From the NCBI GenBank assembly GCA_044224515.1, contig JBGAKH010000012.1, forward strand, positions 12,363-76,362: DNA of 64,000 nucleotides. The letters run 5' to 3'. Shown one piece after another: positions 1,447-64,000 of the stretch. The stretch's first letter is position 1, and every line of letters starts with the position of its first letter. The notes under the pieces were generated by a model. It was not told where the DNA came from and did not search any database. It was given only the letters and a program-made list of their open reading frames with translations. The DNA comes from Chlorobiota bacterium. Lineage in GTDB: Bacteria; Bacteroidota; Ignavibacteria; Kapaibacteriales; NICIL-2. The position numbers were made by a program, and so were the translations under genes.

Positions 1447-1753
1447 GCGCTCTGCAACCGATCAATGATGAAGGAATCAGATACAAAGATATCACCAAGA
1501 GCTGTGCCGCTCATCCGGGCAACACACTCTACATTAGGCACGGACGGCTATTTTCGGAACAGCTATTCCTATGACAACACCGACATCTTCAGTCTGACGA
1601 CATGAATCTTAACTTTTTTGTGACAACTCTTCTGGCTGCGAATCGCACAAGTCCGTAATTTTACACGATGCTTTTGCTATGCATCGGCCTACGGCCGCTG
1701 CCGGGGAAGCAAAAACAATAGTGAACCTTCACACCTTTTTAAGGATCCTTTCA

Positions 1754-3700
1754 ATGCGTACAAGCACCTCGCTTCTACTTGTAACGCTTGCATTGCTCTT
1801 TACCATGAGCTGTAAACGCAAGCAAGAGTACAAAATGCCGCCAAGCAATTCGAAGAATTTCTCTCTTTGGCACAAAGTCGACACTCCTGCGGGAGCTGAC
1901 CCAAGCGTCGCGGACAGTTTAGGCGGCAACGGTTTCGAGAAGATTGCAGATAAAATGGGTTTTGTTACCTACGTACCCAAAGACGATGAACTCAAGTACT
2001 TCGGAGATTCGCGCGCTGTGAAAGGTGGCGAGTTTCGTATTGTGTCCGAGCAATTTCCGGCTACCTTTCGTCCGGAAGGACAAAACTCCACCAGCGTCTA
2101 CAATCAAGACGTCAAAGCCATAGTCTATGAAACATTGCTCGGCACGCATCCTCTAACCAACGAGTACATGCCCAGCTTGGCTTCGCACTGGAAAATCAGC
2201 GAAGACAAGATGACCTTTACCTTCCGTATCAATCCGAACGCGCGCTTCTCGGACGGCAATCCGGTGACTTCGGAAGACGTGATCGCTTCCTACAAGCTTC
2301 AAATGGACGAAACCATATTGGAACCCTCCGCTCAGCTTGTGTACTCGAAGTTTGAAATGCCTGTGGCAATTTCGAAGTACATCGTTCAGGTTCGCACAAA
2401 GACTTTGAACTTCCGCAACCTTCTGTACTTCTCAGGAATGTTGATTCAGTCATCGAAGGAAATTGGCAAGCTGACCGGTAAAGAGTATTTGGAAAAGTAC
2501 AACCAGGTGATGCCGGTAGGTTCAGGTCCGTATATTCTTTTGACCCAAGACATTAAAGATGGTGTTCAGTATATCATGACACGTCGTGACGACTACTGGG
2601 CAAAAGATGACCCGGTGAACAAGTATGCCGGTAACTTCGACCGAATTGTCTATGAAGTCGTCCGTGATAACCCGACGCTTCAATATGAGAAGTTCAAGAA
2701 CGGCGAAGGTGACTGTTTCCGTTTCAACATGGCAACCACTGAAAAGTGGATTAAAGACACCGAGTACGATGCAATCAAGCATGGCTGGGTGAAGCGTATG
2801 CGCGTCTTTAACGAAGCACCGATGGGTACTGCCGGATATGCGTTCAACATGCGCAAAGAACCGTGGAACGACATTAAGGTTCGCGTTGCATTTGCTCACC
2901 TCGTTCCTCGCAAGCAAATCATCGAGAAGCTGCTCTACAATGAGTATGAGCCCTACGATACAGAGTATCCCAATTCTGTCTACGAATGCCCGAGCAACGA
3001 AAAGATAGAGTACGACCCCGCACTCGCAAACAAATTGCTCGATGAAGCCGGTTGGTCACAACGAAATGCTCAGGGTATTCGCGTAAAGAACGGCAAAGCG
3101 TTGTCTTTCGAATTGGCTATCACCAAACCTGTTGAGCGTTTTGTGACTCCAACTCAACAAGAACTTCGTAAAGCCGGTATCGATATGCAGCTCAAGTTCG
3201 AAGACTGGCCAACAACCATCAAGAATATCGACGCACGTAACTTCGAGGTCTTCTACTTTGGTTATGGTGGATTGGTTATTCCGAATCCGGAAACCTCTAT
3301 GAAGTCAAGTCTAGCCGACAAGAGTGACAACAATAACATCCAGGGCATCAAGAACGAGCGCGTAGATCAACTCTGCGATGCTTATGACAAAGCCTTCGAT
3401 GTAAAAGAGCAGATTAAGATCATCCGCGAGATTGACTCCATTGCCGCATCGATCCATTACAATGTTCAGCAGTGGAATCCCCGCGGCATTCGCTTCGCCT
3501 ACTGGGACAAGTTCGGCATGCCGGAGTTTGTGGCTCCGCGTCTGACCCAGTTATCGTATCTCTATCGTACTCTCGCAATGACCTGGTGGTACGATCCTGA
3601 GAAGGCAGCAGCCATCGACGCAGCGAAAGCAGCAAAGAAAGACGTTGACGGACCGAAGACGATCCAAGAGAATCGCTTCTGGAAAGAACACAAGTTGTAA
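1754..3700 (+). CDS. oppA: Peptide ABC transporter substrate-binding lipoprotein (family 5, OppA/YejA-like)
   Basis: Start taken at MRTSTS (1754); lipobox-like TMS-C; GDSRAVKGG, LASHWKISEDKMTFTFRINPNARFSDGNPVTSEDV, PVGSGPY motifs; followed by oppBCDF. Confidence 0.9.
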   Translation: MRTSTSLLLVTLALLFTMSCKRKQEYKMPPSNSKNFSLWHKVDTPAGADPSVADSLGGNGFEKIADKMGFVTYVPKDDELKYFGDSRAVKGGEFRIVSEQFPATFRPEGQNSTSVYNQDVKAIVYETLLGTHPLTNEYMPSLASHWKISEDKMTFTFRINPNARFSDGNPVTSEDVIASYKLQMDETILEPSAQLVYSKFEMPVAISKYIVQVRTKTLNFRNLLYFSGMLIQSSKEIGKLTGKEYLEKYNQVMPVGSGPYILLTQDIKDGVQYIMTRRDDYWAKDDPVNKYAGNFDRIVYEVVRDNPTLQYEKFKNGEGDCFRFNMATTEKWIKDTEYDAIKHGWVKRMRVFNEAPMGTAGYAFNMRKEPWNDIKVRVAFAHLVPRKQIIEKLLYNEYEPYDTEYPNSVYECPSNEKIEYDPALANKLLDEAGWSQRNAQGIRVKNGKALSFELAITKPVERFVTPTQQELRKAGIDMQLKFEDWPTTIKNIDARNFEVFYFGYGGLVIPNPETSMKSSLADKSDNNNIQGIKNERVDQLCDAYDKAFDVKEQIKIIREIDSIAASIHYNVQQWNPRGIRFAYWDKFGMPEFVAPRLTQLSYLYRTLAMTWWYDPEKAAAIDAAKAAKKDVDGPKTIQENRFWKEHKL

Positions 3701-3728
3701 TCCCTGTCTCATCGCTTTTCTTCCGTTC

Positions 3729-3764
3729 AAAGAGCCGCTTGTAGCCAAGCGGCTCTTTTTTTTT
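3729..3764 (+). terminator. Intrinsic terminator between oppA and oppB
   Basis: AAAGAGCCGCTT-gtagcc-AAGCGGCTCTTT perfect 12-bp stem with a T-run. Confidence 0.85.
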
Positions 3765-4079
3765 GGAAACAGGCAAGTCACATACAACGCCACAAGCACA
3801 GACTGCACCGCCGCAAGCATTTGTGTATTGAATGAGTAGGTTATACGAACGATACATGATCACAAACCGAACTACAGCACCTGGACTAGCATTTGGCAAC
3901 GCGTTGAGAAGAAAGCCTAAATGGCTCAAAAATTCTCAAGAAATGCCTTTCCGAAAGCCTCGCAGATACTATTTTTACGCAGACGGGGACTGACTGTTCA
4001 CCTCGAACACGATGCAAGACTCCACGACACTCTTTTCGCAGCCTCTGCGGAAGAACGAAACACCATATTTGGCTGAATC

Positions 4080-5315
4080 ATGTTCTCATACTTTGTACGA
4101 CGCATCCTTCTAACCATTCCGACCTTTATTGGCTGCACCCTGGTCGTGTTCTGTATTGTGCAATTGGCGCCGGGAGGACCTCTTGAGCAGCAACTGATGG
4201 CACTCAAGCGTGGAAGCACGGAGTCCGGTGGTGCATCGAACGTACAAGGACAAGCATTGCCGACCGAGGCATTGAATGAACTAAAGCGATTCTACGGCTT
4301 CGATAAACCCCTCCACATCCGTTACTTAATCTGGTTGGGAGTCTGGAAACGCGAAGCGGAGTCGTACAACCTACAACCGGAGACACGGCGCCTGGTTGGC
4401 GACGGCAAGAGTGTTATGATCAAGGGCAGTCCGGGTAATTGGAAAGTCTACGATGCTGACAGCCCCGAAACCGAGGTAGCAGGCTGGCAGATTGGGCAAA
4501 GCACGAACGACAGCGGACAGGTATCCTTCCGTGTGTTTCGTGAGGAGTTTAGTGGAATCTTGACCGGCAACTTTGGAAAGTCCTACACCTATCGCAAACC
4601 CGTGTTGCAGCTGATTGAAGACCGAATGCCGATCTCGATACAGTTTGGGATTATCAGTTTCATTCTCACCTATATCGTGTGCCTGTATCTGGGTATTCAG
4701 AAAGCGCTAAACCACAACTCGACCTTCGACTTCATTTCTTCATCCATCGTTTTTATTGCCTACTCCGTGCCCGGATGGGCATTGGGCGCGGTGCTGGTGG
4801 TACTTCTTGGCACTAGTAATTTCTTGGCCATATTTCCCTTGGGAGGGTTCCAAGACAAGATGTACAGTGAGCTTCCGCTGCTCGACAAAATCATAGACCG
4901 AGCAAGTCACTTTGTTCTGCCCTTGGTTTCCTACTCGCTGGGAGGCTTTGCCACACTTACCATGTTGATGAAGAATTCTCTGCTCGAAAATTTATCGCAA
5001 GACTATGTACGCACAGCCTTCGCCAAAGGTATCCGTGAGCAACGAGTGATTTGGCTGCACGCAATGCGCAACTCTATCATTCCAAGCGCTGCGGGCATTG
5101 GCTACGTGATTGTCTTGTTTGTTACGGGATCCTATCTTATCGAGTCGGTCTTCAATATCGATGGCATCGGCAAGCTGTCGTTTGAAGCCGTAGTAAGCCG
5201 CGATTATCCTATTGTCTTCTGTTTTACCGTGATTTCGGTAACGATAACCCTGGTTGGTTCCATTTTGTCGGACCTTGCCGTTTCGCTCGTTGACCCACGT
5301 ATTCGCTACCGCTAG
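4080..5315 (+). CDS. oppB: Peptide ABC transporter permease (OppB/YejB-like)
   Basis: MFSYFVRRILLTIPTF N-terminus; EAA loop DYVRTAFAKGIREQRVIWLHAMRNS; C-terminal DPRIRY. Confidence 0.92.
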   Translation: MFSYFVRRILLTIPTFIGCTLVVFCIVQLAPGGPLEQQLMALKRGSTESGGASNVQGQALPTEALNELKRFYGFDKPLHIRYLIWLGVWKREAESYNLQPETRRLVGDGKSVMIKGSPGNWKVYDADSPETEVAGWQIGQSTNDSGQVSFRVFREEFSGILTGNFGKSYTYRKPVLQLIEDRMPISIQFGIISFILTYIVCLYLGIQKALNHNSTFDFISSSIVFIAYSVPGWALGAVLVVLLGTSNFLAIFPLGGFQDKMYSELPLLDKIIDRASHFVLPLVSYSLGGFATLTMLMKNSLLENLSQDYVRTAFAKGIREQRVIWLHAMRNSIIPSAAGIGYVIVLFVTGSYLIESVFNIDGIGKLSFEAVVSRDYPIVFCFTVISVTITLVGSILSDLAVSLVDPRIRYR

Positions 5316-56021: not shown

Positions 56022-57638
56022 ATGAAAAAGTTTAGTCTTCGCGCCACTCTCGTTGTCGCAGGTCTTCTTCTCGGCGGCACTGCCATCGGCACCATGATTG
56101 GTCCGCATTTACTCGGCGGCGATAACATCTACGAACAAGTCACCAAGATTAGCCATGTCCTCAATATGGCGTCAAAGAATTACGTCGACGATGTCGACAC
56201 GCAGAAGCTTACCGAAGCTGCTATCAAGGGAATGCTTGGTGAGTTGGATCCTCACTCCGTGTACATCTCTGCCAAAGAAATGCAGAAGGTGACGGAGGAC
56301 TTCAAGGGTAGCTTCGACGGAATCGGCGTTGAGTTCGATGTTGTACATGATACCATCACTATTGTCACGGCTATTAATGGCGGACCTAGTGAAGCCCTCG
56401 GAATCTTAGCCGGTGATAAGATTGTAAAGATCGACGGACAAAGTGCCATCAAGCTTACGCGCGAAGAAGTGCCAAAGAAATTGCGGGGTCCGAAAGGCAC
56501 ACAAGTCACAGTAGAAATCTTGCGCGAAGGCGAGTCCAAGACCTTGGAGTTCACTATCACTCGCGACAAAATTCCTCTGTACTCAGTTTCTGCCGGATTC
56601 ATGATTGAAGGCACCAACACAGGCTTCATCTCTGTTAATCGTTTTGCAGAAACCACCGCCTCCGAAGTGATCGAAGCGGCCCGCCGACTGAAAGCGGAAG
56701 GCATGAAGAAGCTGGTGCTTGATTTGCGCGGCAACCCCGGTGGCTACATGGAACAAGCGACTTTGATTGCAGATCAGTTCCTAGATGGCGGACATAAAAT
56801 CGTCTACACAAAATGTCGCCGTCCTGAATGGGAAGAAACAAAATATTCCGTCAGTGGCGATGAATTTGAAAAGCTCCCACTTATTGTTTTGATCAACGGT
56901 GGCTCTGCGTCGGCAAGTGAAATCGTATCCGGTGCGATCCAAGACTTGGATCGTGGCTTGATTGTAGGCGAGACATCCTTCGGCAAAGGCTTGGTCCAAA
57001 AGCAATTTGATTTGGGCGATGGCTCGGCGTTCCGTTTGACAATATCGCGCTACTACACCCCGTCGGGTCGTACGATTCAGCGCGACTATAAAGACAAAAA
57101 CAAGTACTATCAAGGTGTAGGACGCGAGGAAGGCGAAGAGGGTGATAACATAGCTCACAGCGTTGACTCAAAAGACACCAATCGTCCGCTCTTTAAAACT
57201 GTCGGTGGACGCAAAGTATTCGGCGGTGGGGGCATCACGCCGGATTACATCGTGAAACCGGATACCATCAACATGCTGAGTCGCAAACTCCGCGCAAAAA
57301 ACGTGTTCGCCGAGTATGTGGTGAGTACGTACATGAAGGATCACGGTCCAAGCCTACGCACAAAGTATAGCTCCATGCAACAATTCGTTCGCGATTTCAC
57401 GGTTGACAAACAAATGATCAACGGCATTAAAGAACTCGCTAAAGCCAAAGGCGTTGAGTGGAACGACAAAGAGTACGAGCAAGATGAAGACTTTATCCTT
57501 ACAGAGCTCAAAGGACGCGTTGCCTACGGCATCTGGGGTACAAACGGTTTTACCGCATGCTATGTAAAGTCAGACAAACAGCTGCAAAAAGCGCTGAGTC
57601 TCTTTCCGGAAGCAATGCGAATCGCTCATCTGAACTAA
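56022..57638 (+). CDS. ctpA: Carboxy-terminal processing protease (S41A, CtpA/Prc-like)
   Basis: LDPHSVY, PDZ GIGVEF, DLRGNPGG, SASASEIVSGA, FGKGLVQ, RYYTPSGR. Confidence 0.93.
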   Translation: MKKFSLRATLVVAGLLLGGTAIGTMIGPHLLGGDNIYEQVTKISHVLNMASKNYVDDVDTQKLTEAAIKGMLGELDPHSVYISAKEMQKVTEDFKGSFDGIGVEFDVVHDTITIVTAINGGPSEALGILAGDKIVKIDGQSAIKLTREEVPKKLRGPKGTQVTVEILREGESKTLEFTITRDKIPLYSVSAGFMIEGTNTGFISVNRFAETTASEVIEAARRLKAEGMKKLVLDLRGNPGGYMEQATLIADQFLDGGHKIVYTKCRRPEWEETKYSVSGDEFEKLPLIVLINGGSASASEIVSGAIQDLDRGLIVGETSFGKGLVQKQFDLGDGSAFRLTISRYYTPSGRTIQRDYKDKNKYYQGVGREEGEEGDNIAHSVDSKDTNRPLFKTVGGRKVFGGGGITPDYIVKPDTINMLSRKLRAKNVFAEYVVSTYMKDHGPSLRTKYSSMQQFVRDFTVDKQMINGIKELAKAKGVEWNDKEYEQDEDFILTELKGRVAYGIWGTNGFTACYVKSDKQLQKALSLFPEAMRIAHLN

Positions 57639-57664
57639 TACTCGATTCCAATCGCAGAAACAAC

Positions 57665-57700
57665 AGCGTCTTCCTCTCCTCGAGCAAGGCGCTTTTTTTT
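57665..57700 (+). terminator. Candidate terminator after ctpA
   Basis: AGCGTCTT-N13-AAGGCGCT followed by a T-run. Confidence 0.55.
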
Positions 57701-58171
57701 GATCAACCTTCTAGTATAAATAAGTCAGCTGTTTGTATTGAAGCAGTATTAGCTAACTGCACACCATACTGTGGCCCATCTTCAAAACTCTCCATACTCC
57801 ATTCGGCACATCAAGAGTGACCGGAACAGTTTCGCATGCTAAGCTCAACTAGGCGTGCACGTTGTTTACACTTCAACACACTACATCTTGGAATCACGCA
57901 CTTGGTCCAAACAACCAATCGGACATTGCTGACTACACTGTTCTTAGTACCAATGAACACGACAATGATAGGTTTGAAACGTGTCGGACCTAGAAGCAAT
58001 GCGCTGCGCACGACAATCACAGAAACTCTCACGAGTAACGCAAAGCGTATTCGATGATCAGCTGCTACGCGGTCGCGTGATTTTCAGATCGATAACCTTC
58101 GATCGATGACGAGAGCGTGCAACACGTTACCTAGGGCATTCAGCTAGGGCTGACACGCGTGGAATTACAAT

Positions 58172-58206
58172 AAAAAAGCCTTCTTCAGCTGAGTGAAAGA
58201 AGGCTT
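58172..58206 (-). terminator. Intrinsic terminator after the anti-sigma gene
   Basis: Minus strand AAGCCTTCTT...AAGAAGGCTT followed by TTTT. Confidence 0.8.
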
Positions 58207-58233
58207 AGTAGACGGACAGACAAAAAGCAATTG

Positions 58234-59598
58234 TTACCAGTTATACCCGAGACCTATTACAAATGAAATCTTCGTGTCTTTTGGTCCAATGCCACTGCTT
58301 TGCGTTTGATACCAAAAGGTTTCGAATGCCATGCCGGTGTTGAGTTGAAGGAATGCGACCGGGAAACTGAGTCCCACACTGCCATTCAACAAACCAAGTG
58401 TAGCTCCGGAATTCCAACTGAGACCGCTTCCAACTTTGGCAAAACCTTGTGCGCCAAGCATAAACTCCTCAGCGCTGATACGTTGGTATTCTATTGTCCA
58501 ACAACTCAATTTCGGGTTCTGCAAAGCCTCGCCTGATTTTGTAATATTCGAAATTGCATAGCGTCCACTCGTAAAGCCTGCTCCAATCGAAGCGTTCTCG
58601 TTGAGGTTGTAATACACGCTTAAAGAAGGTTCGGCGACGAAAGCGATATTCGAGTTGCCCGGCACAACACCTTGCACGCTAGCCGATGCAAGACGATTTA
58701 ACTGCAACGTGAAGTCACTCGTCTTTCCCGCATTAAACGGACTCACCGGTACGTTAACCATACTCAGTTTCTTTGAGTACGAAGTGTTCTCATACGCTGA
58801 AACGTTTTGAATAACTGCCGGAGGTGGTGCCCATGGCTCGTTGATCCCTTCGCTTTGACTTACATCGTTTGCACCGGCATTCATGTTCTCAACGTTAACC
58901 TTAGGAGCTGCCTGCTGGGCCACTGTTTTCGATGCCGCGGAATTCATCTCGTTTGGTATCGCGATGGACTTGCTTCGAGCGGCACCGGCAGTACTAACAT
59001 GGCTCGCTGCACGATAGCGTGCACGATCGGACTCGACAGTTGAAGAACTATACGTTGAGTTTGCAGCGCCGGCAGATGCCGGTGAAGCAAAAGCTGAAAC
59101 ACCATTTGATGCTTGATATGAATTCTGATTTGAGATCGTATTGGATGCGGATGCACTCGATGTTTGTGTCGCAGATTGTTCGGCAGTCTTGTTTCGCAGT
59201 TCAGACGAAGATTGTTCCGTACGAGCGCGGTCGGTGTTTCCGGTGTTTGAAATCCAGTTCATGGCGAAAAATGTCACCGCAGAACCAAGAAGCAGCGATC
59301 CAACCGGTAAGGCAGCTTTGCGCAGCCACATCATAAGTCCACCACCCAATGCACCAACACCAAGCGCTTTGGGCAAAACGCCGGCATCCTGCATGACACG
59401 GGTCGTCAGGTACAATGGTGGCTTCGCGTTCGAACGCTCATGTTCGAATGCACGACGCATGGACAGAGCTTCGCTGAACTCTTGCTGGAGCTCAGGATCT
59501 GAAGCAAGCGCAGCGAACATCGTTGTTTGCTGCATCGTATCCGCCTCTCCATCTAAGTAGAGGTAGATAAGATCTGCCGGTGTAAAGTTTTCAGTCAT
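58234..59598 (-). CDS. Putative dual-membrane-spanning anti-sigma factor (anti-sigma head, TM helix, disordered tether, C-terminal beta-barrel)
   Basis: Start MTENF (59598), 454 aa, 19 nt after the ECF stop; LIYLYLDGE...ELQQEF head; hydrophobic segment ~aa 97-116; S/A/T/N/Q-rich aa ~117-293; alternating beta-strand C-terminus ending FVIGLGYNW. Confidence 0.7.
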   Translation of the reverse strand: MTENFTPADLIYLYLDGEADTMQQTTMFAALASDPELQQEFSEALSMRRAFEHERSNAKPPLYLTTRVMQDAGVLPKALGVGALGGGLMMWLRKAALPVGSLLLGSAVTFFAMNWISNTGNTDRARTEQSSSELRNKTAEQSATQTSSASASNTISNQNSYQASNGVSAFASPASAGAANSTYSSSTVESDRARYRAASHVSTAGAARSKSIAIPNEMNSAASKTVAQQAAPKVNVENMNAGANDVSQSEGINEPWAPPPAVIQNVSAYENTSYSKKLSMVNVPVSPFNAGKTSDFTLQLNRLASASVQGVVPGNSNIAFVAEPSLSVYYNLNENASIGAGFTSGRYAISNITKSGEALQNPKLSCWTIEYQRISAEEFMLGAQGFAKVGSGLSWNSGATLGLLNGSVGLSFPVAFLQLNTGMAFETFWYQTQSSGIGPKDTKISFVIGLGYNW

Positions 59599-59617
59599 GG
59601 ACCTATGATCCTGAAGT

Positions 59618-60190
59618 TTATTTTCTATAATCCATCCAATACTGTTCCAGTGACTCTCGCAGCTTGCGCTTGGCACGTACAATCCAGTTACGAACCGTCG
59701 TCATTGGGACATTCATTAAGTCGGCGATTTCTTGATACGACATATCCTCGTAGGCTTGTAGAATCAAGGCTTCTCGCTGATCGTCAGGCAATACGTCGAG
59801 GGCCATGCTCAACAACTTCGACAACTCAGCCTGCTCCAACGCGCTGGTCTCGGCGGGGGCTGCCATGAAGTGTTCGTTGAACATTACCTCCGAGTGATTC
59901 TGTGTTCGCTGACGCATGCGCAGGCACACGTTACGAGCAATGCGAATAAGGAAAGCAGGAAGATTTGTCATCTCCTTTTCCGGACTCGCCGATTTTAAAA
60001 AGAGTGCATAGGTTTCTTGAAAGGCATCATCGGCTGCATGAACAGAGCCCAGGATTTTGCGACAATACATGAAGATCCGATTCGATGTACGATCGTAAAT
60101 CTCCTGGAATGCCGCATCTTTCTCGCTCTTTGATCCAAAGAGTAAGGCGTAGAGTTCGGCCTCCGTATATGTGCTATAATCTTGCGCCAT
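59618..60190 (-). CDS. ECF-type RNA polymerase sigma factor
   Basis: Region 2 AFQEIYDR...ADDAFQETY...FLIRIARN; region 4 LPDDQREALIL...MSYQEIADLM.VP..TVRNWI.RAKRKL; start MAQDY (60190). Confidence 0.93.
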   Translation of the reverse strand: MAQDYSTYTEAELYALLFGSKSEKDAAFQEIYDRTSNRIFMYCRKILGSVHAADDAFQETYALFLKSASPEKEMTNLPAFLIRIARNVCLRMRQRTQNHSEVMFNEHFMAAPAETSALEQAELSKLLSMALDVLPDDQREALILQAYEDMSYQEIADLMNVPMTTVRNWIVRAKRKLRESLEQYWMDYRK

Positions 60191-60635
60191 GAAGCGTTTC
60201 GGAAGAACACTGTTGCACAACTCACCGGCTATGTAGACAATAATCAGCACCTCGGACTTCTGTTTCACCCAAGGGACTCTTTTTTCCACATGATGACTTT
60301 GTAACTCAAAATAGGCTAAAAAACGACCTATAATCGATCTAAATCCACTCTAAGAGCCTGTCCATTAAAAAATCTCTGCCTAAAGAAGCTAAATCTGCAG
60401 CGACTCAGACGCTTAAAAACCTTCCATTCGCCCACTAGGAGTCCCACTACTACGAAGCCGGACCTAAGCATGTTCTCGTTGTCGCTTTAATACAAGGGCA
60501 CACCACTCGCAGCGTCGTGTAGTCAATTCGTAGGGTTGATGAGACAGCCAGCATCAATTTTTGGCGAGAAAGGCCGATACACTGGAAAAGAGTAGGCACT
60601 ATTGGCACGAATTACGACGACGAAGGAGTTTGCGT

Positions 60636-61271
60636 ATGAATCCCGAACATCGAGATCCGGAAAACGAAAGAGATATTCGACTGAAAACCATGCTGGTGAT
60701 GACCGGGATGGACCACTTAGTCACTGCTATGGAACAGCAGCGAACGGCTCTGGAACAGTCTGACAATCCGGAAAGTGCTGCAGCTCAGCAAATGCGCGAA
60801 CAATTGGATCAAGATTTCATCAGTCTGTTCAATGGCCTATTGGAAAAATTCAACGCGATTGATGACAAACTGCGCTCTATTCAGACTGCGCACTTCGCAC
60901 TTCAACATTCGTGCAGCTCTGCAACCGAAGTTGCTCAAACGGCACTACGCAATGTTCAACGCGGCAATCCTTATTTGTCGAAGATCGACGACATCTTGAG
61001 CTACCACTCAGAGCTCGACACCACGGAAGCCATTATCAACTCAGCCACCGATATGATAAAGGTGGCGCGACGTGACACAGAACATGTTCTGAGTTCACTA
61101 CGCTTCCCTACTCGCACAGACCATAAGCATCAGTCTACAACGAATGCGGACGCTCCGCTCGTTCACCACACAACGCAGAACACATCTTCGGGTGATCATT
61201 CAGAACATCGGCATTCGAACGACAGCTATTCCGAAACTCATCACCTTAGTCCGGCTCTATTAGGAGTGTAA
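60636..61271 (+). CDS. Hypothetical helical/coiled-coil protein with His-rich tail
   Basis: SD AAGGAG 7 nt before ATG 60636; helical heptad-like core; C-terminal H/S/T-rich tail. No family recognised. Confidence 0.6.
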   Translation: MNPEHRDPENERDIRLKTMLVMTGMDHLVTAMEQQRTALEQSDNPESAAAQQMREQLDQDFISLFNGLLEKFNAIDDKLRSIQTAHFALQHSCSSATEVAQTALRNVQRGNPYLSKIDDILSYHSELDTTEAIINSATDMIKVARRDTEHVLSSLRFPTRTDHKHQSTTNADAPLVHHTTQNTSSGDHSEHRHSNDSYSETHHLSPALLGV

Positions 61272-61273
61272 GT

Positions 61274-61630
61274 ATGGCACGCGCAAAACCCCTAGACTAC
61301 GAAATAGCTGAGTTCTCGCGCGAAGCAGAACAAAACCGCTTAGTCGGTGCTTTCGCCGACTTCTTATCCCTCAAAGGAATCAGCGGTACGGAGAACTCTC
61401 AGGTGAGTCGCTCGTTGCTACCGGCTGAAATGATCGTCGACAAAGCCAGCACGGTCGAAGTCATGAAAGATGACGCACTCAACGGTCATGATCACGGAAC
61501 AGCAATGACCTTCCTCGTTCACCGTGATGAGCACAACGACATCCGCTCTATTGAGGTTCTGTGCTCTTGTGGGAAGCGCGCCCTTCTTGCGCTGGATTAT
61601 GAGGAAGAAGTAGATCCCAACGAAGACTAA
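61274..61630 (+). CDS. Hypothetical protein with His clusters and CSCG motif
   Basis: SD AGGAG; starts 2 nt after the upstream stop; GHDH, HRDEH, EVLCSCG motifs. No family recognised. Confidence 0.65.
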   Translation: MARAKPLDYEIAEFSREAEQNRLVGAFADFLSLKGISGTENSQVSRSLLPAEMIVDKASTVEVMKDDALNGHDHGTAMTFLVHRDEHNDIRSIEVLCSCGKRALLALDYEEEVDPNED

Positions 61631-63379: not shown

Positions 63380-64000
63380 CTACGGGGCTACCACGACTAG
63401 CAGCGCTCGTGAAGTTGTGCTGCCTGTACTCCGTAGGTAATACATTCCCGGCGACAAGTCACGGAGTTTCCAACTGTGCAGTCCGTCCTCGAGACTATGC
63501 TCTGCAGACCGCATATCAACAGGTCTGCCGAGTGCATCAACAAGCTCGACTGTAGAGGAACTACGAATAGTTACCTCCGTGCCCGCAGGGTTGGGTGCTA
63601 CCTGTAACACATCGCGGTTGAACTCTAGATTCAACAATTGACTTCCGCACATGGAAGCCATATGTATTACGCATTCTGCCTCAGCGATCTCAGCACACTG
63701 TGCATCAAGTGAACTCGAGACCTGCGTGCAGCGCAGAATTCCATCTTCCATATTTCCGGCTAGTACTCGTGCGTAGACTCTCCGAACCAAGGTCGGCTGA
63801 CTCTCGATATCGACAAGGGTGTCGAGCGTTACGACCAAATCAGCACCGCTGGACAACGCTCCTTCTATTGTAAGAATTTTCTTCGGTACTCGCAGTTGGG
63901 CTCGAAGTCCAACACTCTCCTGCGACTGCGAGGCAGAAAGTAATAGATCAAGTGCTACTACATCTCCCGGCAGCACAGAATCTGCACTTGGCTTGATCTG
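63380..64000 (-). CDS. C-terminal part of a secreted protein with cohesin-like domain and T9SS-type CTD (5' end outside the window)
   Basis: Frame stays open to base 64000; VAPNPAG.E...VDALGR...PGMYYLR...LLVVVAP CTD. Confidence 0.75.
   Translation of the reverse strand, partial: QIKPSADSVLPGDVVALDLLLSASQSQESVGLRAQLRVPKKILTIEGALSSGADLVVTLDTLVDIESQPTLVRRVYARVLAGNMEDGILRCTQVSSSLDAQCAEIAEAECVIHMASMCGSQLLNLEFNRDVLQVAPNPAGTEVTIRSSSTVELVDALGRPVDMRSAEHSLEDGLHSWKLRDLSPGMYYLRSTGSTTSRALLVVVAP

Follow-up and report, generated by a model that had tools for sequence, protein, structure and literature searches.

Can a single protein chain hold a sigma factor in the cytoplasm at one end and sit in the outer membrane at the other? 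The question is raised by a two-gene operon on the minus strand of a 64,000-nucleotide stretch of DNA from a Chlorobiota bacterium (assembly GCA_044224515.1, contig JBGAKH010000012.1, positions 12,363 to 76,362; this whole stretch is called the window here), in which a gene for an extracytoplasmic function (ECF) sigma factor is followed by a gene for a 454-aa protein. The original prediction, made from the letters of the DNA, took the second product to be an anti-sigma factor reaching across the whole envelope. Our analysis makes it probable that the two genes form such an operon, both in architecture and in the sigma/anti-sigma role of their products; far less certainty attaches to the specific proteolytic trigger. 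The features of the operon, in order of transcription, are as follows.

60239..60267, minus strand: predicted autoregulated ECF promoter, TGAAACA, 16 nt, ATTATT, some 50-77 nt upstream of the ATG of the sigma gene.
59618..60190, minus strand: ECF (group 4) sigma factor of 190 aa, with Pfam Sigma70_r2 and Sigma70_r4_2, TIGR02937 and full-length homologues.
59599..59617, minus strand: intergenic gap of 19 nt between the sigma and anti-sigma genes, by direct sequence reading.
59374..59598, minus strand: predicted anti-sigma head, aa 1-75, a four-helix, RseA-like domain of class I that lacks zinc ligands.
59248..59316, minus strand: predicted single transmembrane (TM) helix at about aa 95-117 that would serve as a signal anchor, N-terminus inside, from Kyte-Doolittle hydrophobicity and AlphaFold2 (AF2).
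58729..59238, minus strand: predicted disordered periplasmic tether, aa 121-290, with a predicted local distance difference test score (pLDDT) below 50 and 59% S+A+T+N+Q.
58237..58713, minus strand: predicted C-terminal eight-stranded barrel, aa 296-453, from AF2, Foldseek and the C-terminal motif.
58167..58206, minus strand: intrinsic terminator that ends the two-gene operon, a hairpin followed by UUUUUU (-13.6 kcal/mol, z = -3.1).

The sigma open reading frame (ORF) runs from an ATG at 60190 to a stop at 59618-59620 and the anti-sigma ORF from an ATG at 59598 to a stop at 58234-58236, the latter product having the N-terminus MTENFTPADLIYLYLDGE. Longer versions of both genes with TTG/GTG starts, reported by the ORF finder, are not supported, because every homologue of the 454-aa protein begins at the equivalent start, MT(E/D)NF, and because homologues of the window sigma, at 190 aa, match it over its full length. 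The 5' extension of the sigma gene is also disfavored by the conserved promoter motif, which sits within it. The terminator consists of a 12-bp stem with one bulge and a U6 run; it was not reported by a simple terminator scan. Gene structure, the 19-nt gap and the closing terminator were thus as the original prediction had described them. A single contig fragment in a wastewater metatranscriptome equals positions 59611-59753, covering the sigma gene's 3' end together with 7 nt of the 19-nt gap; this is weak evidence of in situ transcription of the operon and is compatible with co-transcription. The sequence is also present in bioreactor and activated-sludge metagenomes.

The first product scored 87.3 bits against the sigma70-ECF model TIGR02937 (cutoff, 42.9) and contains Sigma70_r2 and Sigma70_r4_2 domains only, as ECF sigma factors do. 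Its closest relatives in the Protein Data Bank (PDB) are SigW and SigE, and by NCBIfam-type models it is not an RpoE equivalog.

To place the second product, for which no significant Pfam or NCBIfam match was found, relatives were collected at two depths. A word-indexed search returned four close relatives only, probably because the low-complexity tether crowds the candidate list. An exhaustive profile search yielded 677 representative clusters at E <= 1e-3, 260 of them at E <= 1e-10, most of the matches being 400-460 aa long and aligning end to end. A scan of species-representative genomes, run with a 15-sequence alignment, found 36 loci; the structure and motif statistics below refer to 72 members. 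Immediately upstream of the family gene, and in its orientation, all 36 loci have a homologue of the window sigma (E 1e-38 to 1e-117). At least two paralogous pairs of sigma and tethered anti-sigma occur per genome in several Kapabacteria-type genomes (L003/L026, L004/L027, L005/L022, L006/L033, and L013/L019). An apparent sigma/anti-sigma fusion of the Dma3 kind at locus L011 was rejected, as the ORFs lie in different frames and the long ORF is an open upstream extension.

The hosts of 32 of the 36 loci are metagenome-assembled genomes (MAGs) labeled Kapabacteria or Kapaibacterium, "Chlorobiota," Ignavibacteria, or unclassified Bacteroidota. The four others are in MAGs labeled Alphaproteobacteria (L015 and L038) or Hyphomicrobiales (L010 and L017). 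Since proteins with a sorting domain of the type IX secretion system (T9SS; type A), a hallmark of Bacteroidota and the Fibrobacteres-Chlorobi-Bacteroidetes (FCB) group, flank both L015 and L038, which belong to one "uncultured Alphaproteobacteria" MAG, the label of that MAG is doubtful. The genomes closest to the window are Kapabacteria or "Chlorobiota" MAGs, in keeping with the earlier placement of the host outside Bacteroidia. The organism-named matches in the sigma homologue search were all Kapabacteria, Ignavibacteria, Chlorobi, or unclassified Bacteroidota MAGs, with no named member of Bacteroidia among them, and the two most distant sigma homologues adjoin proteins of 439-451 aa in which no Pfam match was seen. 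Kapabacteria and Ignavibacteria are classes of the phylum Bacteroidota in GTDB; for this reason the family can be called "outside Bacteroidota" only under an NCBI-style taxonomy. The window itself carries, at 63380-63976 on the minus strand, an ORF with a T9SS type A sorting domain (TIGR04183, 24 bits; cutoff, 23), which is consistent with a host from the FCB group.

The pairing extends to a promoter motif. TGAAAC was present within 200 nt upstream of the sigma gene, on the sense strand, at 32 of 37 family loci; shuffles gave 1.8 on average and 8 at most, and the antisense strand gave 0. The family consensus reads TGAAACA, about 16 nt, then GTnATT or ATTATT. The window copy, TGAAACAGAAGTCCGAGGTGCTGATTATT at 60239-60267, is kept among orthologues while its flanks diverge, and it is the only exact match to the family motif in the 64-kb window. 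The pattern TGAAACA-N16-ATTATT is what would be expected of an autoregulated ECF operon, and we regard it as a predicted promoter. Between paralogous pairs, the -10 variants differ slightly (ATTATTG versus GTCATT or GTTATT), a hint at parallel circuits that are insulated from each other.

If the second gene product is an anti-sigma factor, its N-terminus should be the part that meets the sigma factor, and this head is the best-conserved region of the protein across homologues. AF2 with the 72-member alignment placed helices at residues 7-16, 21-33, 35-57, and 62-71 with a pLDDT of about 96. When the family profile was compared by hhalign with residues 1-70 of Escherichia coli RseA (a query confirmed to be identical to chain C of PDB entry 1OR7), the two matched with a probability of 89% and an E value of 2e-6, and family positions 10-56 were paired with RseA 4-47, the sigma-E-binding helices. 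A lenient Pfam scan of the 72 members gave weak matches to zf-HC2 in 24 and to RseA_N in 5, all below cutoff. A HMMER search of the family profile against PDB sequences returned low-complexity noise only, so that the link to RseA comes only from hhalign. Cys is missing from residues 1-120, and His occurs there once; the HxxxCxxC motif that marks the zinc-binding anti-sigma subclass is therefore absent, and the head would be a non-zinc anti-sigma domain. Together, these data give moderate evidence that the head is an RseA-like anti-sigma domain and a predicted binder of the adjacent sigma factor.

Behind the head, the most hydrophobic segment of the protein lies at aa 95-113 (Kyte-Doolittle, 1.77) within an AF2 helix spanning residues 86-120. 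In most of the 72 members, no segment is more hydrophobic than the equivalent one, which lies mostly near residues 92-125, and across the family K/R is more common on its N-terminal than on its C-terminal flank, a positive-inside bias. Because about 90 residues of conserved helical domain precede it, the segment is read as a signal anchor and not as a cleavable signal peptide. The tether that follows is unconserved, and its length varies among family members between 107 and 198 aa.

For the C-terminal part, the mean AF2 pLDDT of the whole protein rose from 52 with five homologues to 72 with the 72-member alignment. In the deeper model, aa 296-453 form eight long antiparallel strands of 10-16 residues at a pLDDT of about 90 or more, with a short hairpin in one loop. 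When this region was compared with the PDB by Foldseek, nearly all top matches were integral outer membrane barrels at a probability of 1.00. The leading ones were small and eight-stranded, namely, Ail (E 9.5e-5), the OprF N-domain (0.68), NspA (0.65), OmpA, OmpX, PagL, and OmpW, the template modeling (TM) scores in parentheses being quoted on target length; some larger outer membrane porins were also among the top matches, and the shallower AF2 model left the picture unchanged. The C-terminus of the window protein, ...FVIGLGYNW, fits a family pattern of K(-12), hydrophobic, G(-10), hydrophobic, T/S, Y(-7), G(-6), hydrophobic, S, hydrophobic(-3), x, F(-1), with F as the last residue in 55 of the 72 members, L in 11, and W or Y in 2 each (70 in all). 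In outer membrane protein (OMP) biogenesis, a C-terminal pattern of this kind is the canonical beta-signal read by the beta-barrel assembly machinery (BAM). We therefore predict that aa 296-453 are an eight-stranded outer membrane barrel that bears its own beta-signal.

It is very improbable that this domain is instead a soluble periplasmic beta-domain, a sandwich or lipocalin-like sensor, which would make the protein a conventional anti-sigma factor of a single membrane. Such a reading would fit the lack of any Pfam OMP family above threshold and the modest Foldseek E values, 1e-4 to 1e-3; it is at odds with top matches that are nearly all integral barrels, with the length of the eight antiparallel strands, and with a C-terminus whose alternating hydrophobics and terminal Phe are those of a BAM substrate. 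The barrel differs from its best structural matches (the OmpA N-domain, OprF-N, OmpX, Ail, NspA, and OmpW, matched over aa 296-454 and likewise carrying a beta-signal) in its setting: those are stand-alone proteins, secreted with cleavable signal peptides, whereas here the barrel would form the C-terminal domain of a regulator anchored in the inner membrane and lacks its own signal peptide.

The domains found by these methods agree with those proposed earlier from the letters: a helical, anti-sigma-like head without HxxxCxxC; a TM segment at about aa 97-116; a low-complexity tether of about 175 aa; and amphipathic strands with a BAM-type aromatic end. The AF2 check of the C-terminal region that the original prediction had proposed, directed at whether the barrel is closed, gave an eight-stranded, OMP-like fold, its closure being judged from secondary structure and fold matches and not from coordinates.

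Several points weigh against an envelope-spanning anti-sigma factor. That closure is read at one remove from coordinates is the first, and the target-length TM-scores are moderate, 0.45-0.68. Sequence evidence for the head is likewise modest, consisting of the hhalign probability of 89% and the sub-threshold Pfam matches beside a null result with HMMER against the PDB. Ahead of the TM helix, aa 72-92 are rich in Gly/Ala and weakly hydrophobic, and a membrane crossing there would invert the topology. Finally, localization, sigma binding, and cleavage are all predictions for this family. With these points counted, an ECF sigma factor paired with a predicted envelope-spanning anti-sigma factor is still the reading that we consider probable.

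The next question is how the pair relates to the Dma proteins, with which the original prediction had aligned it. Five features define these: a region at the N-terminus that binds the sigma factor, a TM helix, a tether that is long and disordered, an eight-stranded OMP_b-brl_2 barrel at the C-terminus, and an adjacent ECF21 sigma factor (PMC10927553, PMC13088901). Dma1 was established as one polypeptide with domains in both membranes by fractionation and dual-tag western blots; it binds the sigma factor Das1 through its N-terminus, the first 40 residues being sufficient, and its barrel was located experimentally in the outer membrane and in vesicles (PMC10927553). The members Dma1, Dma2, and Dma3 were identified by tblastn at 95% query cover (PMC10927553), and the search for similar proteins beyond Bacteroidota found none (PMC10927553, PMC13088901). 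Our literature search found no paper on such proteins in Ignavibacteria, and among later papers citing the Dma work none dealt with distribution outside Bacteroides.

For a direct comparison, Dma1 was recovered by way of its tryptic peptides (Table S5 of the bioRxiv supplement) in a metagenome scan, in which human-gut contigs gave 100% matches. One of these, the B. thetaiotaomicron-like contig L043, carries three relevant genes at 1483-4192, among them those for Das1 (186 aa) and Dma1 (417 aa), with about 47 cytoplasmic residues of Dma1 ahead of the TM helix. Compared with the peptides of strain VPI-5482, this Dma1 shows differences in the tether (for example, DKLHIPTEK versus DKLHIPAEK) and one residue that differs just before the barrel (VVDMKHH versus VVDMEHH); its barrel peptides are exact. 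As strain differences fall in the tether while the barrel peptides match exactly, the Dma1 tether also evolves fast. The third gene, at 1483-2202 on the minus strand of L043, is presumably the counterpart of NigD2 (BT_4719), an assignment that we take from its position by das1 and from the gene numbering of the paper only.

The two systems agree in plan. Operon order is sigma to anti-sigma in both, the order of domains is the same, both proteins have an eight-stranded barrel, and their sizes are close (417 aa for Dma1 and 454 aa here). The compact barrel of about eight strands, put forward earlier as a distinguishing trait, is accordingly no difference, since Dma1 is described as eight-stranded as well (PMC10927553). 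In sequence, the systems part. Dma1 matches PF13568 (OMP_b-brl_2) with 35.7 bits (E 1.2e-8) and PF13505 (OMP_b-brl) at the borderline, with 28.1 bits against a cutoff of 28.7. The window family matches neither above threshold: PF13568 gave no match to the window protein at E <= 0.1 and none to any of the 72 members at E <= 0.01, and was outside the 25 most-matched families for these members at E 10, while PF13505 was matched weakly by 5 of the 72. In the hhalign comparison, a check that the original prediction had proposed, the family profile and Dma1 gave a probability of 0.1% and an E value of 0.56, with neither head nor barrel aligned, a result that rests on a single Dma1 sequence and so has limited sensitivity. 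The heads are of different types, about 75 aa and RseA-like here versus about 47 cytoplasmic residues in Dma1, which matched neither zf-HC2 nor RseA_N in Pfam. The sigma factors share 22% identity (E 3e-7), an ordinary similarity between different ECF sigmas, with similar sub-cutoff scores on TIGR02985 and NF058625. The hosts differ too (Bacteroidia versus Kapabacteria/Ignavibacteria), and no NigD-like gene adjoins the pair in the window, whereas the neighbor of das1 in L043 is NigD2-like by position. Of the claim that the protein is Dma-like, then, the architecture stood on predicted criteria and homology did not: the 454-aa protein appears to be Dma-like in its domain plan, yet distinct in sequence and with a different type of head.

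These data also bear on the origin of the module. It may be that the protein is a deeply diverged orthologue of Dma1/Reo, the whole module having been inherited from a common ancestor of Bacteroidia, Ignavibacteria, and Kapabacteria and not assembled independently; we regard this as rather doubtful. The identical order of domains and genes and the shared eight-stranded barrel (PMC10927553) would follow from such descent, as would the residual PF13505 signal on both sides and the likeness of the sigma factors on the two sub-cutoff models, and the host lineages are sister groups in FCB or GTDB Bacteroidota. Against it stand the failure of hhalign to align the two, the presence of PF13568 in Dma1 and, at E <= 0.01, in none of the 72 members, the unlike heads, and the low identity of the sigma factors.

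That the barrel and head are made as one chain need not mean that they remain one. It has been reported that C-terminal fragments of Dma1 occur alone in Bacteroides outer membrane vesicles (PMC10927553), and the tether of the window family is long, unconserved, and likely sensitive to proteases. The fusion could on this basis be a precursor, with a constitutive cut in the tether yielding an independent OMP barrel and a plain RseA-like anti-sigma stub, and with the two membranes left unlinked. We consider this quite unlikely. Conservation of the fusion across 677 representative clusters, most of them full-length, argues for a function of the covalent link; full-length Dma1 was detected in Bacteroides membranes (PMC10927553); and the linker alignment of the window family shows no conserved cleavage motif.

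If the chain does stay linked, an envelope-spanning anti-sigma factor could work in the following way, which we infer from the predicted domains. The RseA-like head would sequester the sigma factor in the cytoplasm, one helix would cross the inner membrane with its N-terminus inside, the disordered tether of about 170 residues would span the periplasm, and BAM would insert the C-terminal barrel in the outer membrane by its beta-signal. Disturbance of the outer membrane or failed assembly of the barrel may then expose the tether or the free C-terminus to periplasmic proteases. Site-1 cleavage followed by site-2 (RseP-type) cleavage would destroy the anti-sigma factor, by analogy with RseA and Dma1, and the freed sigma factor would transcribe its own operon from the TGAAACA-N16-ATTATT promoter together with a further regulon.

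Two well-known signaling systems share parts of this scheme. As in RseA/sigma-E and MucA/AlgU, the head aligns to the sigma-E-binding helices 1-3 of RseA, the chain would have one TM helix and a cytoplasmic N-terminus, and release would be expected by regulated intramembrane proteolysis. The window protein differs from RseA in having no RseA_C or RseB-binding domain, with no Pfam match beyond the head; its periplasmic part is a predicted disordered tether and barrel, and its sigma factor is not an RpoE equivalog. The FecA-FecR-FecI system follows the same route, from an outer membrane barrel to an inner membrane anti-sigma factor to a cytoplasmic ECF sigma factor. There, receptor and anti-sigma factor are separate and the receptor is 22-stranded, whereas here one chain with a minimal eight-stranded barrel would serve, and the window protein has neither FecR nor TonB-box domains.

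What triggers the sigma-E pathway is the aromatic motif that unassembled OMPs carry at the C-terminus; the anti-sigma factor described here ends in a motif of that kind itself. A more specific version of the mechanism would be an independently evolved, "self-reporting" sensor of OMP assembly that unites an RseA head and the C-terminal aromatic signal of an unassembled OMP in one chain. The anti-sigma factor would itself be a BAM substrate: a working BAM would bury its C-terminal Y/hydrophobic-x-F, and the sigma factor would stay bound. If assembly failed or the envelope were pulled apart, a PDZ protease, either of the DegS/HtrA type or the S41 protease CtpA encoded nearby, might seize the C-terminus and the tether. 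The chain would thereby be trimmed to the membrane for RseP, with release of the sigma factor. We offer this version as an unlikely one.

What is new here is not the design as a category. We describe a sequence-distinct family of a recently described dual-membrane-spanning design, which among the sampled genomes is confined to Kapabacteria and Ignavibacteria and joins an RseA-type head to a barrel without a Pfam match above threshold. A single chain from cytoplasm to outer membrane was previously known only from the Dma proteins of Bacteroides, and a second family without a detectable relation to Dma1 suggests that linking an anti-sigma factor to a barrel is a more general means of monitoring the condition of the outer membrane. 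Several handles come with the family: sigma binding by the head could be modeled on the structure of RseA with sigma-E, the promoter motif could serve regulon prediction in genomes of Kapabacteria and Ignavibacteria, and the protein is a natural comparison for how one chain can be both an inner membrane protein and a BAM substrate. The hosts are uncultured or little-studied members of wastewater communities, so that practical impact would depend on heterologous tests.

The protease named above is encoded downstream of the operon.

56022..57638, plus strand: S41 C-terminal processing protease of the CtpA/Prc type with PDZ (Peptidase_S41, PDZ, CtpB_N-like; TIGR00225 prc, 298 bits).

S41 proteases are known to act on anti-sigma factors: Prc is the site-1 protease in Pseudomonas cell-surface signaling and acts on truncated MucA, and CtpB does so in Bacillus. 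The proposal that CtpA is the activating protease was examined by synteny. The ctpA gene is convergent to the operon and not co-transcribed with it; its synteny is limited to the closest orthologues (L001/L003, L004, and L005, and further away in L007), and it was absent from the 4-kb flanks of the other family loci. CtpA as a family-wide partner was rejected on these grounds, and it is best regarded as a reasonable local candidate only, with no conserved link to the family. Between ctpA and the terminator lie about 600 nt (57640-58230) that hold only short overlapping ORFs, of 73 aa on each strand; the equivalent place in L001 has two small called genes, of 109 aa and 129 aa, neither of them with a Pfam match.

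An element at 408-433 had been proposed as a target promoter of the sigma factor. It lies upstream of a truncated, LiaF-like gene for a multi-TM protein at 1-381 on the minus strand, which starts at 381 and has the N-terminal region MKSRIWVGVILIAVGAGFLLEN... The element reads TGCAAC-N16-CGTA, lacks the family -10 element, and was rejected as a target, since it is not a match to the family motif. It looks like a generic ECF-type promoter for another sigma factor.

On the other side of the operon, two genes are divergent from it.

60561-61271, plus strand: gene for a 236-aa protein with no Pfam match above curated cutoffs and no NCBIfam match.
61274-61630, plus strand: gene for a 118-aa protein, likewise with neither.

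Both stay beside the sigma/anti-sigma pair in L001/L003, L004, L005, and L007, and they could be members of its regulon or unrelated neighbors.

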